Shown here: in pieces, positions 3,188 to 25,065 of the stretch
How the letters are laid out: each line of letters begins with the position of its first letter
Numbering within the stretch: position 1 is the first letter of the stretch
Program-made: the position numbers and the translations under genes
Notes under the pieces: generated by a model
The model's input: only the letters and a program-made list of their open reading frames with translations
The model's database searches: none
Told to the model about the DNA's origin: nothing
IMG/VR virus record: IMGVR_UViG_3300029288_000060
Span: 160,001 to 224,000 of that record
Direction: 5' to 3' (one strand)
Source of the DNA: a virus
Taxonomy: Duplodnaviria > Caudoviricetes
Length of the DNA stretch: 64,000 nucleotides

Positions 3188-4453
3188 TTATTTTGGTATT
3201 CTGACTATGTAACCTGTTCTATCAATATTTTTACTTATTCCATTATTTGTTAATACATAAATTATTTTTTTTGGCAATAACATTCTGTTTTCTTGGTTTA
3301 AATCGTCACAATACCCATCTGTAAATACTAATGTTACATCCGTGTTTAGCTCTCTACATCTAATAAGAGCTGGAAGTAATATAGTTCCGCCCCTACCTTT
3401 TATATCAAATTGAATATCTTTTATTTTTTTAACTTTATATTCTTTTTGAATTTTAGCGTCTGATTCAAGAACTGTAGTTAAGCAATCTTTATCATTCTCA
3501 ATTATGTTTTTAATTCCTGAAAGACCCTCCATGATATCTTTAATGTTCATACTTCCCGAGGTATCTAATACTATAGAAATATTAAATGAATAATCTTTAG
3601 TCTTACCTGGAAAAGGTGAAATAATTGGTACATTTTTATCTTTAATAAAAAATGAATATATTCTTTTTTTATTAATTCTTGTATAAGCTCTCTTTTGTTT
3701 TGATAATCTGCTTCCTTTAACTAATTTTTTAATTATATCATAATAAGGAAGTTGGGGAGGATTTAACAGTTCATTAATTTTATCTGTAATATATGATGGG
3801 ATATTTCCTTTGTTTCTTACATTGTTATATGATTCTTCTAGAGCTTGTTCTGTATATTGTTCTAATCTACTTGCTAACGAACCAATATCAGAAACTTTTG
3901 AAATGTTTTTTTGCCAGGAATCATGATCATCTATATTACAAACCTCATTTTGTTGATTTTTCCCTTCTTCTTCTTTATCATCTGGAATATTCTGATTGTA
4001 AAAATCAGCAGTTTTCTTTAAAGGTAATTTATACATATCAGGATGAATAATTCGAACCTGCGTGGTTCCTAATGTATATGTTTTATTTATTTTAATAATA
4101 GAATTAACTGCACAGTCAGAAGCTAAATTCCATCTTTTTATTTTTTTACTTTTTTGCTCAAGATTTACTTCATCTGAAATTATTCTTAATAATCTTGGAA
4201 TATGATTATTTAAAAGATGTGTTCCTTCGTGCTCAATTGCTATTTTTAAAAAATCATCATCCATCAAATCAATAAATTGTGGGTTATATAAAAGAATTAT
4301 TGAACCATCTATTTCTGCACCAACACCCATAGGACATGACAATGTAGTATCTCTAGCTCTATTAATTCTAGAAAATAAATAACCCCAATAATCATCTTTA
4401 AAAATATATTCTGTTATTAAGTTTTTAATTCTCTCAGATGGTTCTGTTTTCAT
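3188..4453 (-). CDS. DUF2201-type metallopeptidase + VWA domain protein
   Basis: HEGTHLLNNH (HExxH), WNLASDCAVN, MIDAS DTSGSM, GRGGT, VFTDGY; directly downstream of an AAA ATPase. Confidence 0.85.
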   Translation of the reverse strand: MKTEPSERIKNLITEYIFKDDYWGYLFSRINRARDTTLSCPMGVGAEIDGSIILLYNPQFIDLMDDDFLKIAIEHEGTHLLNNHIPRLLRIISDEVNLEQKSKKIKRWNLASDCAVNSIIKINKTYTLGTTQVRIIHPDMYKLPLKKTADFYNQNIPDDKEEEGKNQQNEVCNIDDHDSWQKNISKVSDIGSLASRLEQYTEQALEESYNNVRNKGNIPSYITDKINELLNPPQLPYYDIIKKLVKGSRLSKQKRAYTRINKKRIYSFFIKDKNVPIISPFPGKTKDYSFNISIVLDTSGSMNIKDIMEGLSGIKNIIENDKDCLTTVLESDAKIQKEYKVKKIKDIQFDIKGRGGTILLPALIRCRELNTDVTLVFTDGYCDDLNQENRMLLPKKIIYVLTNNGISKNIDRTGYIVRIPK

Positions 4454-8014: not shown

Positions 8015-8611
8015 TTACAATTCTCCTTCTAAAGATTTTAATACAATCAACATTTTATCTTTTTCTAACTTACTTTTTAAAAAAGTAATTAACCCTTCTT
8101 TAGTATTTGTTCTAAGAAAAATAGAAATTAACTCATTATTTTCATTTTTAATTAAATTGTTAATCATTATATTAATTTTATCAAAGTTTAATAATAGAAA
8201 CTTATCTACATCCTTTTTTAATAGATCAAAATCTAAACCTGTTATAATCTTTGCAATAATACCTATATATTCATATTCTAAAAATTCAATAAACTTTAAA
8301 AAATTATTGATATCTTCAATGTTATCAAAAGTTAAACTGGGTGTAAACTCAAAATTATATATTTCAGTTACTTTATCATTTAACTTTTGACATAATTCTC
8401 TCTGTCTTTCAAAATCAAGAGAATTTATTTCATTGATTAAATTTAAAAATATAAACTTAAATTCTTCCGTCCCTAAATGATTAATAATATCTATAAAATC
8501 AGCATCAATTTCTGCTTCCGGAATCATATAATCTAAATTAGATTCTTCTTCGTCATCAACTTCATCTAACGGAATTGATGTCCCTATTAAAATCTTTTCA
8601 TAATCAGACAT
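8015..8611 (-). CDS. Hypothetical acidic protein directly downstream of RNAP beta
   Basis: 198 aa, abuts the beta stop codon. Confidence 0.75.
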   Translation of the reverse strand: MSDYEKILIGTSIPLDEVDDEEESNLDYMIPEAEIDADFIDIINHLGTEEFKFIFLNLINEINSLDFERQRELCQKLNDKVTEIYNFEFTPSLTFDNIEDINNFLKFIEFLEYEYIGIIAKIITGLDFDLLKKDVDKFLLLNFDKINIMINNLIKNENNELISIFLRTNTKEGLITFLKSKLEKDKMLIVLKSLEGEL

Positions 8612-11600
8612 TTATGTTCTCTCCAATATCAATGAAATAAAATATGAATTTAATAAATCCTTTGCAGGTGATATTTTTGCATCTCTATAATTTGCAGATC
8701 CTGTTTGAACAATATCCGAAATAATTTCATTTTTAGTTGTTAGATCATCACTTAAAGGCCCCATTAGTTCTGATAATAAAGTTGGACAATTGTATGAAAT
8801 TAAAGAATATGTGTCTGCTTCACCTAACCTCTGTCCACCTTCTCTTCTTTTTCCTGATGTAGGTTGTAATGTTTTTCCAGTAACTGGGCCTGTACTTCTT
8901 CCATGCAATTTCATATCCGCCATATGCTCTAATTTACTAAAATACATATATCCTACTGGTACTTCACTTTTTGTTTTTGTTCTATATTGTGGTAAAAATA
9001 ACTCATACCCAGGTTTTAAACCCAAAAAAGACAAAGCTCTTTTAATTTGGTCTTGTTTTGGAGCTTGAAATGGTGGAATTATAATTGGAACAAAAGCTGT
9101 ATTTTTTATCTGGTTTATTAAATTTAAAAACTCTTTATCGCTTAAAACAGATAAATTTGCTATCAATCTGCTTGTAAATTGTTTATTAGGGGAACTATCT
9201 AAAATTGAATAAACAGATTTCATTAAAGTTAAAATTTTATCTTTTCTATTTAGTTGACTAATTCTTATTGCTAAATCTTTTGCAATTAACCCACAATACA
9301 ATTCATATAATTGTCCTATATTACTTCTTCCAATAATACCAATAGGATTAACAATTATATCCATTGTTTCAGACCACGGGGCTGGAGTTCTTGGCATATT
9401 TTCATCTTTTTCTACTAAACATATAATTCCTTTTGCTCCAAATCTGTTACAAAGTTTATCACCAAGATTAATTTTTAATTCTTGCTCAATTTTAAATCTT
9501 ATTAAGATACCATGTATTGTATTACCTTTAACTGAAAATTTTTCTGTTAGAGTGGTTTGATACTTTTTCCTTGTCCTATTAATTAATTCTTGTAGTATTG
9601 GAAATTTATTCTCATCAAGATTTGAAAAAACATCAATGTCAACAATTTTCCCTCCAGGACTTTTCTTAATAAATTGTTGACCTATAACTTCTTCTCCCTC
9701 TTCTTCAGAAAATCCGAGCAATTGTTCAATTTCACCCATCGTTTTCTTTAGAATTGGTTTACCTTTTTCAACATATTCACCAATTTTTGCGATCTCTAAA
9801 ACTCTATCCTTTTCAAAGATTAAAACTTCATCAATTATACCATGAATAGATGTTAATTTATCTTGGTTAATTAATCTTTCATTAATAACAATACCATCTT
9901 CAAAGTTATACCCATCGTAGGGCATTACCGCAGTTAATAAAGTTCTTCCTAAAGAAATGGTTCCATTTGAAATACAACTACCTTCAGCAATAATTTGATT
10001 TGTATGAACATTTTGATTTACTTTAACAATTGGGTTAAAAATGCTAAGAGTATTTTTACCGGTTCCTGACTTTAAGTGTATGGGGCTAATAGGAATTTCT
10101 AAAGTTTTTTTATCTTTACATAAAATAGTAATTGAATCGTTTGTAATATTTATAATTTTGCCATCACAAGGAGCTTTTTTAATAAAATTTTCTGATAAAC
10201 CATTTGTAAACAAAGACTCGTAACCAGATCTTACTACAGGTGGTTCTGGATTTTTTAATGGAATCATCTGTTTAGCTTGGTTTGTAGCCATTATAATTCT
10301 AGCGCCATCATTATTTTCAATAAATGGAATCATACTTGAGGCAACTGATAATATACCAGACTTTTCATTATCAGAAAAAGCTTTTTTAGAAAACAAACCT
10401 CTGGCAGATGTTATAGAAGCACCAATAGATAATTGTTGAGAGATACCAATCATTTCACCTTCTGGAGTATCTAATGGGTCAATATTTCCATAATAGGAGG
10501 GATGAATATTTCTCGCTTCATTTTGTATAGATCTTTTATCGGGAATACCACCAATATTTTTTCCGATGGGTGAAATTCTAGTCATGACTGCCATTTCTTC
10601 GATTGGATTGGCGAATTCCATATTTGCAACTATTTCGGATCTATTAAATTCACTAAGTAGTTTAGTTTGGTTTATTTCAAACTTTGCATTTTTATTACCT
10701 GATATAATTTGTTGTTTATAAATTGTATAGGCAGCTAAAATTTGTTTTTGAACTAGATGAACTAAAACTTCAGATCCTCTAATTCTTTGGTTTAGAATAT
10801 CATTACGATCTTCAACATAACCAATAATTATTTTATATGACATATAATACATAATATCTTTTAACGTTGAAGGTAATTGTTGATTAATTAAAACTTGTTT
10901 TGCAACAGGATCAACAATATTTTCTAAATTTGATAAAATTAAAAATGTTGTGTTAACTTTACCTGTTAACTTAAAAATAACTTCATTAAAATATTCTACA
11001 CTAGCAAATTCTTTTTTAATATCTAATGTATCAATTTTAGCAACAGAAAAGGATGTTATTAATTCTTTCTTTAATTCACTATCTACATTATCAAAATAAA
11101 TATAATTTATATTATCAATTTTAACTACATATTGTTGAGTCTTTTTAGGTTTATCTTGACTAATTTTATATGTTATTCCATACTGAGCTAAAATATGTTC
11201 AAACCCAAAACTAAAAAATAATAGAATTGATAATGGTAACCATGTATTTGCGATAAATATTTCTAAATATTGTAAATTTCTAGTTCTTTTACTTCTTATT
11301 CTAAAAACAGAATACGAGCTTTCAAACCTAGATTCAAACTTTTTAGGAAAAGTTATTGGACATAAAACAATTTGGTTAACTAAACATTTTCTTTGACCAT
11401 TAACTCTAAACGTTCCCGTCTTTTCATCAATTCTTGGAATCTCGATTTGTATATAATGTACTTTTCCATCTTTATCTGTTACAGTTGTTTTTATTAAATT
11501 AATATCTGATTTTTCAATTTCTCCAGCTTTTTGCCTTTTTCCAACTATTTCAATAGGACCTATTTTTAATGGTAATTCTTTAGTCTCTAGTACTTTAAAA

Positions 11601-12732
11601 GAATTTTCTAAATCTTTTTTCAAATTTACTTCAAAATCTATTAATCTTTTTTGAAATAAATGTTGCGGAGACTTATCAGAAACTACTTTTGGAACATTAT
11701 AGGATTTTACAATTGCATCATTTGAAGTATTTATAGGTTTTTGCTGAGTTAATATCTGATCAGAATATTGACTATCAATAATTTTTAGTGAATTACCAAC
11801 TTTTTTTTTGATATGGAATTTGTAATTTTTTTAGCTTTGTTTACATCTCCACTAACTTTACTTAAAATAGAGGCAACCCCAACTTTTTCAAGCCCACTTG
11901 CAGATACTTGTTTTGAGGCTATTTTTTCTTTGGCGACAGGATCTTTTTGTAAATATGATTGAACAGCATCTCTTACTTGTTCTTTATTTTCTGGTTTGAT
12001 TTTAGCATGTATTGTATTCATCACTTGGTCAACAATCTGATCTGTTTCGTCATCCTCTACTTCATCACTTGTATCTAACGAAGTTTCAATTTTACCTGAT
12101 TTAATTGTTTTTAAGATTGTTACAATTCTTTCAAACTTAAAATTTTTATTCTTAACTAATAATCTATATCTAACACCAGACGAAGTGATTAAACATAATA
12201 TTAGATGATCAAATTCAAAAGTTCCTTCTTTAAGTTGTTGAACAATAGGAAAGAATTTTCTATCAACAAATTTATTTAAGTTGTCTTTCGTTAAATCTAT
12301 AGTATACATCAAAACTTTTTCAAAATTATTAAAATCTGAATAAGATTGATTTACAATATTTTTTATAAACAAACTTAATCTTTGACGATAATTGGAAGGA
12401 TTAAAAGTTGAGTCAATAGCATTTAAATAAACAGTTAAATCATAAAATACATTTTTAGATGTAGGAACTTTCATAATTGAAGAATATGAATATATTCCAT
12501 ATTTTTTAAATGCTTTGATTAAATTTTGAGTTATTCTAGTTCTAGGAATTCTAGTCACTGGAATTATATTAATTTTTATATCTACAAGTTTTAAATTTAA
12601 TTTTGGATAGTCTTCTAAAAAACTAGAATTTTCAGAAAAATATGTAACTATGAAATTCTCACCTGGTTTATTAGGAAACCTTATTCCATCAACAACATGT
12701 GTATATTGTCTTAGAGACTTAAATTGAATCAT
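8612..12732 (-). CDS. rpoB: Phage multi-subunit RNA polymerase beta subunit; ORFs 11785..12732 and 8612..11623 joined by a -1 shift at A9 (11801-11809), about 1373 aa
   Basis: RpoB motifs GTFRVNG, HPSYYGNIDPLDTPEG, GYNFEDGI, GDKLCNRFGAKG, NPIGIIGRSN, KLEHM..GGQRLGE. The beta frame is open back to the A9 run, with no Met and no RBS before TTG 11623. Confidence 0.9.
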
Positions 12733-12747
12733 TTTTTAGACTCCTTT

Positions 12748-15700
12748 TTAATCTTCTATTTCTTTTTTCTCAACTAAAGTACCAGTTAACAATCTTTCTA
12801 AGACTGAAGGTGGTAATTCAGTTGTAGTAATCAATCCAGTATTTAGAGCATTATTTACATTCTCAAAAGCTAATCCTTGTAATAATCCGCTATTAAATAT
12901 ATTTTTCTTTATATTCATTAAAACTGGTTTTAATGGATCTTTTCCAACTCTTGCTGGAATAACAGGATTATTACTATCTCTTAAAACTTGACTAATTAAT
13001 ACTTCCATATGCACTAAATCAATACTAGAAATATCACTATATATTTTATAAAATTTTAAAAATAAATGGTTAATATCTTTAAATCTTTCTTTACCAGACA
13101 TTAATCGTTCAACATATAAAACTATTTCTTTTAAATCCTGCTTTTGTAAAGGAACTTCTAACATTTCATAATCTTTATTAAACAATAAATTAATAACATC
13201 TTTAGTCTTATTTATAATTTTAGAATATTTAATAATAACAGGGTAATCTAATATTAAATCAAATGATAAATCTGGAAAGTTTACCTTTGAAATTAAACCA
13301 TTTAAATAGATAGTGTTTTCTTCTTCATTAATAATAAAATTATCACCAATTTCATAACTTTCTAAATCTATTATCATAGAACATAAATCTGTACAATATA
13401 AATTATTTTCGATTTGGTTTAATTTTGTTTTAAGTTGGTTAATATTTAATAAAGGATCATTTTCAAAAATATCTTTTAGAATATCTCTTGTAATAACTTT
13501 AATTGCGGTTGAATGAAATGTACGCATTATCAACTGAGTATTTCGTTCTGCAATATTCTGCGCAGCAATGATTCCAATGTATGGACTTTTATGTACTTGT
13601 AAAAGTTTACCATAACAAGTATGACAAATTTTTAATGATTTACAAAAAATTGGACTTCTTAAATGAATTAAATCACCTGATTTAAAATTAGATGCTTTAA
13701 ATTCTTCTAACTTACCCCTTCTTATTATAAATCTTCCATTAAGTCTGCTGATAATATCTTCATTAAGTTTTATATCCAATGTTAAATCAGTTCCACAATC
13801 TTTTAATGTCCAATCCAATTCAACAGAATTTAGCAAATATGCTAATTTTCTTGCAGTATATCCAGTATCTGCAGTATTAATAACTCTATCAATTATTCCT
13901 GCCCTACTACCACCTGCAGCATTAAAGTATTCTGTCGGAGTTAAACCATCAGATAAAGAACCTTTAATTGGTGGCAAAATTTTACCAGTTGGATCTGCCA
14001 TAATACCCTTTGCAACTAAAATTTGTATTGGTTGATCCCACCCTTTTGTAGAACCCGACTCAACTAAACTATATAACCCAGTATCTTTTAAATGGTTAAT
14101 CATTATTGCTCTCATTTTACTAATTATTTCAACTGCTTCTTCAGTTGTCGCTTTATCTAAATTCTTTTTAAGTTCATATATTTCTGGTGGTATTGTAATT
14201 TCATCTAAATTTAATGATGGTGCTAATAATGTCGAAAATTTAAAACCAATATTTTTTAAACTATTTGCCACTTCTCTGCCTTTTTCATCACCATATTTAT
14301 TAACAACTTCAAAGATTAATTTATTTACAACTTTTTTAGTTACTAAATCGTTTATAAATCTAAAATCTTTTGGAAAGCAATTATTTAAAATTGCTTTTCC
14401 CATTGTTGTATTTTCATTTTTATAAATTACTGGAATATAAGGGTTTGTTGCATTATCTAAATCATCTTGTGATACTTTTATTGGTGATTTAAATTCCTTT
14501 TTGCTGTCTTTTGTTAATAAATATAAACCAACGCACATTTCCTTACTTAATTCAAAAGTGATACTTGTAAACGAATTAGATGACCTTGCTAACATCATTC
14601 TTTTTTTTGCTTCTTCTTGAGATTCAATTGTTAATGGATGAAAAATCGCCATTTGGTCACCATCAAAATCTGCATTAAAACCGCCAACAACAAGTGATGA
14701 AATTTGAACAGAATTACCTTCAACTATAACCGGGTAAAAAGCTCTAACAGATTCCGCATGTAAAACAGGATCTCTTTTTGCTAAAACTACTCTATCTCTT
14801 GATGCTAAAACTGTGGCTTCAAAAAAGATATTATATAATTTATCTGGAACAGTATCATTATTCTTTAAACTTCTTAAAATAATTGAAATACTATTTGTTG
14901 ACAAATCCAAATTTGTAAAATCTTTAATTAAATTCTCAAGTTCTATTTTATTTATCTTGCCAGAATATAATAGAATATGTATAATAAAAGGTTCAAATAA
15001 ACTTAAAGCTAATCTAAATGGAATCCCAATCTGGTCGGCTTTTAATTTGGGATTACCTATAATTACAGCTCTGCCAGAAAAATCTGTTCTTTTACCTAAT
15101 AATTGAGATCTAATTAAACCAAACTTTTTTCCTATTTTTGTTCTTATATAATCATCTAAATCATTAACTGATTTTTGTAATGACCAATTCATTAAATCGA
15201 ACATTGTACCTTCTGTTCCAAATGATTTAATAGAAATGGCTTTTCTTAGTATAGTCAAATATAAATCATTAATTTTATCTTGACTATATCTTCCAGTTTC
15301 ATCTTTATAAATTGGTCTTTGTTCTGGAGGTATTATCGGTACATATTTTATAAATAATGTTTCATTTTGATATGATTCTTGTAGAACTTTTATAAATTTA
15401 TCTCTATCTTCTGATTCACCTCTTATAGATAATTTTGGGTATAATTTTATAAATTCACTTATACCAGTTACTCCACTATCTTCTGATAACAATAATTCAT
15501 TACTATCCAATCTAAAAAAATTTTCTGTAGAAAACATTTTTTCTAACTTTCTGTCTAATCTTAAAAAAATTTTAAATGCAGTTGGATGAATAACTTGCGT
15601 ATTTAAATTTATATAAGAAAAAGTTTTCTTTCTTGCAAGAGAATTTTGGACTCCAAATATTCTCTCAGAAAAGATTCCATCCGGATGAAACTCTTCTGTA

Positions 15701-15777
15701 CGAGTATGGATTAAAGTACTTGTAACTGGTTTTAAACTTTTTACAAAATCATCCAGATTTAAAAATTTTAATGGCAT
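12748..15777 (-). CDS. rpoC: Phage multi-subunit RNA polymerase beta' subunit
   Basis: Catalytic NADFDGDQM, LLGKRTDFSGRAVI, RDPVLH, bridge helix TADTGYTARKL, Zn site DCGT..CKSLKICHTC, trigger loop TQLIMRTFH. Confidence 0.96.
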   Translation of the reverse strand: MPLKFLNLDDFVKSLKPVTSTLIHTRTEEFHPDGIFSERIFGVQNSLARKKTFSYINLNTQVIHPTAFKIFLRLDRKLEKMFSTENFFRLDSNELLLSEDSGVTGISEFIKLYPKLSIRGESEDRDKFIKVLQESYQNETLFIKYVPIIPPEQRPIYKDETGRYSQDKINDLYLTILRKAISIKSFGTEGTMFDLMNWSLQKSVNDLDDYIRTKIGKKFGLIRSQLLGKRTDFSGRAVIIGNPKLKADQIGIPFRLALSLFEPFIIHILLYSGKINKIELENLIKDFTNLDLSTNSISIILRSLKNNDTVPDKLYNIFFEATVLASRDRVVLAKRDPVLHAESVRAFYPVIVEGNSVQISSLVVGGFNADFDGDQMAIFHPLTIESQEEAKKRMMLARSSNSFTSITFELSKEMCVGLYLLTKDSKKEFKSPIKVSQDDLDNATNPYIPVIYKNENTTMGKAILNNCFPKDFRFINDLVTKKVVNKLIFEVVNKYGDEKGREVANSLKNIGFKFSTLLAPSLNLDEITIPPEIYELKKNLDKATTEEAVEIISKMRAIMINHLKDTGLYSLVESGSTKGWDQPIQILVAKGIMADPTGKILPPIKGSLSDGLTPTEYFNAAGGSRAGIIDRVINTADTGYTARKLAYLLNSVELDWTLKDCGTDLTLDIKLNEDIISRLNGRFIIRRGKLEEFKASNFKSGDLIHLRSPIFCKSLKICHTCYGKLLQVHKSPYIGIIAAQNIAERNTQLIMRTFHSTAIKVITRDILKDIFENDPLLNINQLKTKLNQIENNLYCTDLCSMIIDLESYEIGDNFIINEEENTIYLNGLISKVNFPDLSFDLILDYPVIIKYSKIINKTKDVINLLFNKDYEMLEVPLQKQDLKEIVLYVERLMSGKERFKDINHLFLKFYKIYSDISSIDLVHMEVLISQVLRDSNNPVIPARVGKDPLKPVLMNIKKNIFNSGLLQGLAFENVNNALNTGLITTTELPPSVLERLLTGTLVEKKEIED

Positions 15778-16336: not shown

Positions 16337-16350
16337 TATAATTTGTTCTA
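16337..16350 (-). promoter_or_regulatory. Putative phage promoter motif B (AGAACAAATWAT)
   Basis: TAGAACAAATTATA upstream of the operon containing RNAP; recurs at about 25440, 31500, 39760, 42020 and 58295. Confidence 0.5.
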
Positions 16351-24277: not shown

Positions 24278-25065
24278 TTATACTAGTGCAGCCATTGCTT
24301 CTGGTAAACTCTTTCCTGTTGCATTTGCAAGTCTTTGTCCAAAACGTAACTTTAAAGCATGTAAACTAGATGGATTTAATTTACCTGCAGCAGACAACGA
24401 ATTTCTTTGGTTTTTGAACATACTTATTATAGGTTTTACAAAAGGACCTGTTATACCTTCATCAACAATTTCTTCGTCATCTACTTTTTTTTTATTTCTT
24501 CATCAACATCATTTTCAAGAATATTCATTGCTGCTTCTACAAGATTATCCCTTAAAATTTTATAGGCGTCTTCAATGATTTTTCCATTCCAAGTATTTAG
24601 TTTATTAATTTTCTTTGATTCAGTAATAGCCCGACCAATTAAAAGATTATCTATAGCTAATGAAAATGCTTTTGTTCGAATTTTTTCCTGGACAATCTTT
24701 TCAATATCAATCTTGTTATTTTTTATCTTAGAAATAGATTCACGTAATTCAGTTTTGACACTTTTTCTTCCTTGTTTTGAGGTTACCAACTTTTTACAAT
24801 TTTCTCTTGCAATAATAGCACTTTCCCTTGCCATTTTTCTTAAACCACTAGCATCTACCTTTTCAGTCAGCGTAGATGGATTATGTTTTACTAATTTATA
24901 CATTTCAATAACAAGAGACATTAAAGCACCTTTTATTGAAAAATACTCCTCTACAAAAACAGGGCAACAAACGTTTACCTTAGATACAGGTTTACCAAAT
25001 AAAACATAATCTAATGAATAAAAATTTTCAAGCACTCTGATCTTTGATTCTTTTTTCAATTTCAT
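24278..25065 (-). CDS. Hypothetical protein: 194 aa (24481..25065), extendable to about 262 aa by a -1 shift at A9 (24485-24493)
   Basis: Ends ATA AAA AAA AAG TAG; the -1 frame stays open for 68 codons (VDDEEIVDEG..EAMAALV*) and fills the gap to the next gene. Confidence 0.7.

Follow-up and report, generated by a model that had tools for sequence, protein, structure and literature searches.

Jumbo phages of the phiKZ type carry two multisubunit RNA polymerases (RNAPs), and jumbo-phage RNAPs tolerate split beta and beta′ subunits; in phages of the phiKZ/AR9 type each piece is an independent gene that has its own start, and it is the catalytic core that is split. Bacterial RNAP slips efficiently on runs of 9 A or T residues, and the dnaX gene (tau/gamma) of Thermus thermophilus is subject to transcriptional slippage on a run of nine; work cited in the same source on the AT-rich endosymbionts Buchnera and Blochmannia puts the share of transcripts corrected at long A runs at 12-50% (PMC5009743). 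In Citrobacter rodentium and Yersinia, the tssM gene is interrupted but is rescued at a poly-A run, from which two isoforms result, both of them required (PMC4256274); the propensity to slip differs greatly between polymerases (PMC6260861); and E. coli survives a frameshift in rpoB with 5% suppression (Huseby et al. 2020, PMC7022156).

Here we describe a run of nine A residues (A9) in the beta gene of one of two multisubunit RNAPs of a phage. On the evidence of sequence comparisons the run is probably a real, evolutionarily maintained recoding site, with a slip of the transcribing polymerase as the likeliest event; the slippage itself, its level, and the step at which it occurs are what we infer. 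The phage, a jumbo phage, is represented by a 268.8-kb IMG/VR record (27.8% GC, estimated to be 74% complete), of which a 64-kb part was analyzed (the window, meaning that whole stretch; coordinates refer to it unless the record is named). The A9 run lies at 11801..11809 on the minus strand (T9 on the plus strand), reads TCA AAA AAA AAG in the 0 frame, and contains the heptamer A_AAA_AAG. It falls near the 3′ end of a 315-aa ORF (11785..12732, minus strand) which starts at an ATG of its own, preceded by a strong RBS, AAAAGGAG; most neighboring genes have GGAG-type sites. The ORF ends ...ATA TCA AAA AAA AAG TTG GTA ATT CAC TAA, so that it comprises an N-terminal domain (NTD), a 4-residue out-of-frame tail (LVIH), and a TAA at 11785-11787, and terminates 13 nt past the run. 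The -1 frame (8612..11830, minus strand; 1072 open codons) encodes the beta core with Rpb2 domains 3, 6, and 7, which are the fork, the hybrid-binding/active-site domain, and the clamp anchor; it is bounded by a TAA at 11831-11833, 21 nt ahead of the run, and its first ATG, GTG, or TTG is a TTG at 11623, 62 codons from the start of the run, at which no SD-like sequence was found. The intervening 59 beta-frame codons, from the run to this first possible start (11624..11800, minus strand), include no start codon and would therefore be translated only if the frame changes at the run. One added A gives a 1373-aa joined protein with the junction ..ITNSISKKKVGNSLKIID... The preliminary description had given this geometry correctly: a 315-aa ORF ending as above, a -1 frame opening just before the run (the distance is 21 nt), about 60 startless codons followed by a TTG without an RBS, and a joined product of about 1373 aa.

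The beta-frame piece matches PF04565 at 9e-10 and PF00562 at 7e-47, with PF04560 below its cut-off, and several phage RNAP-beta PHROGs; since the matches of NCBIfam rpoB models (1e-90 to 1e-101) do not reach the equivalog cut-offs, it is a divergent member of the Rpb2/RpoB superfamily. The NTD (the 315-aa ORF) has no match in Pfam, PHROG, or NCBIfam, and no paralog was found in the phage genome. An AlphaFold (AF2) model of the 315-aa ORF (pLDDT 81) has an alpha/beta fold over residues 1-210, followed by helices over 222-307, and its confidence collapses at residues 309-315, at and after the slip site (approximately residue 308-311). Foldseek against BFVD pairs this model, at probability 1.0 and TMq 0.43-0.47, with large proteins from PBS1 and further phages; the annotation of one of these proteins is RNAP subunit. 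A P-loop-NTPase or Rossmann-like assignment was considered and rejected, as Foldseek against PDB and VIA-align returned only generic matches with Z no higher than 7.7, in the noise range. The phage has two multisubunit RNAPs: a second beta′/beta pair lies at 130157-136096 of the record, 24-30 kb before the start of the window, with beta′ (920 aa) and beta (1036 aa) both unsplit and without an N-terminal module. This second beta aligns with the window beta only from residue 177 of the long piece, and since it lacks the NTD, the 315-aa part is a lineage-specific N-terminal module joined to the beta core and not a canonical beta domain. The interruption of beta proposed at the outset stands with this qualification. 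Against phage GenBank records, neither megablast nor tblastn with the NTD gave a match, and for the beta core the matches are confined to remote rpoB genes of jumbo phages and of cells (22-30% identity).

Directly upstream of beta lies a 1009-aa beta′ gene (12748..15777, minus strand) with Pfam Rpb1 domains 1, 2, 3, and 5; the two are probably in the same operon, and the order beta′-beta is also found in most relatives. A conserved 198-aa ORF (8015..8611, minus strand) abuts the beta stop, and several relatives have a comparably sized ORF after beta. The window contains 20 copies of the octamer AGAACAAA, where 7.6 would be expected and none of 100 shuffles has as many; 13 of them are on the minus strand. 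One copy (16342..16349, minus strand) lies upstream of the 160-aa ORF that leads the beta′/beta operon, and the octamer may serve this operon as a phage promoter element. Mobile elements were seen in several related loci. In one broken relative (L059/L060) an IS200/IS605-type pair, consisting of a Y1 transposase and a TnpB/Cas12f-like gene, occupies 1448-2913, approximately 1.6 kb upstream of beta, and no beta′ gene is called within 4.5 kb upstream of beta; in L070 beta′ and beta are separated by a NUMOD3 (homing-endonuclease-type) ORF at 217-1023; and a 1720-aa beta protein (P0132) contains a LAGLIDADG_3 domain, probably an intein. Among three otherwise identical contigs of relatives, L005 differs from L004 and L006 by a T-to-A change near position 3218 that converts a TTA of the beta core to TAA; this may be a true nonsense variant or an error from low coverage.

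The NTD has 111 longer homologs, and all but two are single NTD plus beta proteins of 1333-1391 aa that carry the Rpb2 domains (of the other two, one has 1045 aa and the second, with an intein-type domain, 1720 aa); since nearly all are single proteins, fused NTD-beta is the normal form. Another 12 protein clusters of 311-324 aa, 54-72% identical, end at the same alignment column as the 315-aa ORF. DNA was recovered for 11 distinct broken lineages on 20 contigs from JGI, ENA, NCBI, and Logan, representing several projects and assemblers. All 20 contigs have exactly A9 at the break and need one additional A; the joined products are 1368-1377 aa wherever the locus does not run off the contig; the first beta-frame ATG, GTG, or TTG lies 62-255 codons past the run; and the 0-frame stop follows the run by 13-22 nt. 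No relative read has A10 or A8 at the site. Four fused sister lineages, one for every broken group, carry A9 in frame, reading AAT AAA AAA AAA GTT in L016, ATC AAA AAA AAA GTT in L070, TCA AAA AAA AAG CCT in L002, and TCA AAA AAA AAC TTA in L015; in these, the protein would stop after 308-330 aa upon a +1, -1, or +2 slip. The rest of the clade carries A7 or lacks a run, and its genes are fused; all distant relatives are fused without a long run. Because many close and all distant relatives are fused in this way, a free NTD is not generally required. Annotation pipelines call the genes of relatives as a hypothetical protein of 313 aa and an N-terminally truncated beta. The preliminary description had suggested checking whether homologs are fused or keep the shifty site, and had held that its reading would fail if all relatives carried an in-frame gene without a conserved A run; in fact both forms exist, more than 100 homologs being fused and 11 lineages being broken at A9.

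The startless stretch evolves as coding sequence. Over the 62 codons past the run, eight broken lineages give dN/dS values of 0.07-0.46, align without frame-breaking indels, and differ at third positions 641 times compared with 341 at position 1 and 259 at position 2. Within purely broken clades dN/dS is also low (0.066 at dS 0.92 for L003-L020, and 0.18 for L007-L009), and for this reason the stretch has been kept as beta-frame coding sequence throughout the broken state of the gene; as it offers no place for initiation, ribosomes must come into it out of the NTD frame, at the run or beside it. With fused homologs, the same break in 11 relatives, and purifying selection, the central claim that the A9G run interrupts an RNAP beta gene and that a -1-equivalent event is needed is well supported. 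The beta tree requires at least 4-5 changes of frame state, in which the broken state arose or reverted, a result borne out by local trees built for the NTD and for the junction region. That the break originated once and was then inherited was considered and rejected on the trees and on an AU test, which excludes a single broken clade at p = 4e-5 for a group defined after the first tree had been seen. For the origin of the in-frame A9 sisters, nucleotide alignments fit both an indel next to the run and the loss of one A from A10.

We envisage that standard decoding of the genomic A9 would yield the 315-aa N-terminal module and then stop, and that a one-base slip at the run would yield the 1373-aa NTD-beta fusion, for which more than 100 relatives have one uninterrupted ORF of 1360-1370 aa. 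The transcribing RNA polymerase would stutter on the T9 template and add one A, giving an A10 mRNA; a -1 ribosomal shift or sliding on A_AAA_AAG could be an alternative or a contributor. The broken and the in-frame A9 states would be expected to give the same two products in reciprocal ratios. Much of what characterizes transcriptional slippage is found here: A9 at the junction, a continuation frame without starts, and a layout conserved together with selection. Nine also matches the 9-10-bp RNA-DNA hybrid. RNAalifold on nine lineages found 0 conserved pairs near the run, the local fold at the run is no better than that of shuffled sequences (z = +0.64), and no SD-like (GGAG-like) element upstream of the run is visible by eye in the alignment, all of which agrees with the earlier remark that no strong hairpin or internal SD was to be seen; with neither a conserved stimulatory structure nor an internal SD-like element, polymerase slippage is favored. 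The length of the run points the same way. The codon before the lysines is TCA, ACA, GCA, or CCA in the 11 broken lineages, its fourfold-degenerate third base always being A, and a run that stays at 9 when the heptamer needs only 7 favors a length-dependent polymerase slip. The conservation of the run goes only modestly beyond codon bias, however, because AAA already makes up 89% of Lys codons in these genes, and 53% of the fourfold sites of Ser, Thr, Ala, and Pro end in A.

Two other accounts leave the gene interrupted but would produce its core by other means. A -1 ribosomal frameshift, by tandem slippage on A_AAA_AAG or by poly-A sliding, would make full-length beta and leave the site a real recoding site; we regard this as possible but unlikely. 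The heptamer is in the correct 0-frame phase in 11 of 11 broken lineages (as A_AAA_AAA in L004), A_AAA_AAG is the shift site of E. coli dnaX (PMC5009743), and ribosomes slide on iterated AAA codons, as another report states (PMC4363877); but there is no conserved downstream structure and no SD-like element visible upstream, the run is held at 9 through a degenerate third position that the heptamer does not need, and L004 has AAC, not AAG, after the run. Far less probable is a truly split subunit, in which NTD and beta core are separate and the core is made by non-canonical initiation or by reinitiation. Such an arrangement would accord with the general tolerance of jumbo-phage RNAPs for split beta and beta′, with a break at a domain boundary of low pLDDT, and with a 0-frame stop only 13-22 nt past the run. 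Yet the beta-frame piece lacks the start and RBS of its own that each fragment of a split gene should possess, there being no ATG, GTG, or TTG for 62-255 codons; in the beta frame the run is followed directly by conserved residues (V-G/E-N-x-L), whose codons show synonymous CTA/TTA changes and which precede any plausible reinitiation point; and independent initiation does not require an invariant run.

The true genome might have A10 and an ordinary intact 1373-aa ORF, an artefact to which we assign very little probability. The phage lineage is known from a single contig, and A10 would make its protein exactly colinear with the fused relatives; against this, A9 is present in 20 contigs of 11 related lineages from different projects and assemblers, no A10 or fused version of any broken lineage is found among the matches, and the in-frame A9 of the sister lineages is correctly called; elsewhere, in L045, an A10 is called. 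The position of the run goes beyond chance: the genome contains six A9/T9 runs and none longer, and the end of a long frame meets the opening of another at only 5 of 384 long homopolymers. Of these five the beta site alone is an A9; the remaining four are A7 runs, one of them between two overlapping ATG-started ORFs. In 474 kb of related loci, 22 of 25 A9/T9 runs are the beta-junction site, and other A7, A8, and A9 runs do not break genes, which argues strongly against a systematic homopolymer error. Pattern scans of IMG/VR for the A10/A9 junction returned 80 loci and were unspecific, the only relative being L136 (the L002 contig), and none of the A10 matches was a relative. On the comparative data, an A10 miscalled as A9 in the phage contig is unlikely. 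Least probable of all, in our judgment, is a DNA-level contingency locus that toggles between A9 and A10 to give on and off subpopulations, or the decay of a dispensable RNAP set. Phage homopolymer contingency loci have been reported (bioRxiv 10.1101/2025.10.21.683753), the frame state has changed at least 5 times in the clade, and the phage possesses a second RNAP set. Tract-length polymorphism among near-identical genomes, the mark of a contingency locus, is nevertheless missing: at the site every contig has A9 and none A10 or A8, including three near-identical contigs from three samples which are the same over 2.7 kb except for one substitution; and A9 is what the in-frame sisters carry as well, though its register is different. 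Decay is excluded by strong purifying selection across the whole gene inside broken clades, and the joined ORFs of 1368-1377 aa are intact in all loci that reach the end of the gene.

We wish to distinguish the existence of a polymerase slip site from its purpose. A free NTD is not generally required, and the site could be a tolerated "saviour" slip and not an adaptive device. It is doubtful, though conceivable, that A9 is a tuned expression device in which the yield of full-length beta and the ratio of NTD to beta are set by the transcribing polymerase, and in which the free NTD is functional. That polymerase might be the host RNAP or the other phage RNAP set, which lacks the NTD; assembly of the NTD-beta RNAP might thereby be timed or self-limited; and the repeated A9 frame flips might be a phage counterpart of paramyxovirus P/V editing, in which the default product differs among genera. 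A dependence on the polymerase is reasonable in principle, since slippage propensity varies between polymerases (PMC6260861). If slippage at the run is confirmed, a polymerase subunit would be made only through an error-like slip, possibly one committed by a polymerase; a beta gene would have toggled at least five times between "slip to extend" and "slip to truncate" on the same A9 tract; the clade would offer a natural experiment on how far core enzymes tolerate recoding, and on the rise and persistence of slippage sites in AT-rich phages; and the RNAP of this phage group would prove to be systematically mis-annotated.

The window contains another A9G run that may be a second slip site. It lies at 24485-24493 on the minus strand, within ORFs spanning 24281-25065; here a 194-aa ORF ends ATA AAA AAA AAG TAG, and the -1 frame adds a 68-aa tail. 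Relatives of the 194-aa protein are either approximately 185-190 aa or 264-334 aa in length and have non-conserved C-terminal tails; no homolog of the 68-aa tail was found, and it is unlike the tail of any relative. The 0-frame stop after this run is TAG, and ARAGORN predicts a tRNA with anticodon CUA (an amber suppressor) at 263759-263829 of the record, outside the window.

How does the beta junction compare with the systems described at the outset? The closest is Thermus dnaX, also a bare A9/T9 run in a polymerase-subunit gene for which no stimulatory structure is needed (PMC5009743), and where RNAP stuttering gives long and short products with a common N-terminus, both of which would be expected for phage beta. 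In Thermus, however, the long product is in the genomic frame, whereas the long and presumably essential phage product would need the slip; the four in-frame sister lineages have the dnaX-like polarity; and Thermus dnaX encodes a replicase clamp-loader subunit, the phage gene RNAP beta. The tssM gene resembles phage beta in being interrupted, with A residues added at a poly-A run to give truncated and full-length forms (predicted for the phage), but it has 11 A's, is a bacterial T6SS gene, and requires both forms, whereas any role of the short phage form would be hypothetical. The endosymbionts share an AT-rich genome in which frameshifted genes persist at poly(A) tracts; theirs are scattered lineage-specific lesions under relaxed selection, in contrast to a single site in 11 lineages under strong purifying selection. 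The ribosomal frameshift of E. coli dnaX uses the identical heptamer, A_AAA_AAG, in the identical phase, but is accompanied by an upstream SD-like element and a downstream hairpin or stem-loop; the phage site has the in-phase heptamer, and neither of the other elements is conserved there. The E. coli rpoB frameshift is likewise a beta gene kept viable by recoding at a nearby shifty sequence (PMC7022156), but in a laboratory mutant, by ribosomal suppression, on a non-homopolymer heptamer, and without evolutionary conservation; together with tssM it indicates that such a lesion can be viable. Finally, phages of the phiKZ, AR9/PBS1, and phiR1-37 types are jumbo phages with two multisubunit RNAP sets and a beta core of 22-30% identity to that described here; unlike theirs, the beta and beta′ of this phage are unsplit, and the break is a change of frame at the boundary between NTD and core. 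No description of recoding in the RNAP beta gene of a phage turned up in our literature search, which, as the search was incomplete, is weak evidence of novelty. The type of recoding site is already known; this one lies in an unusual and central gene and has an unusual history of repeated flips of frame.
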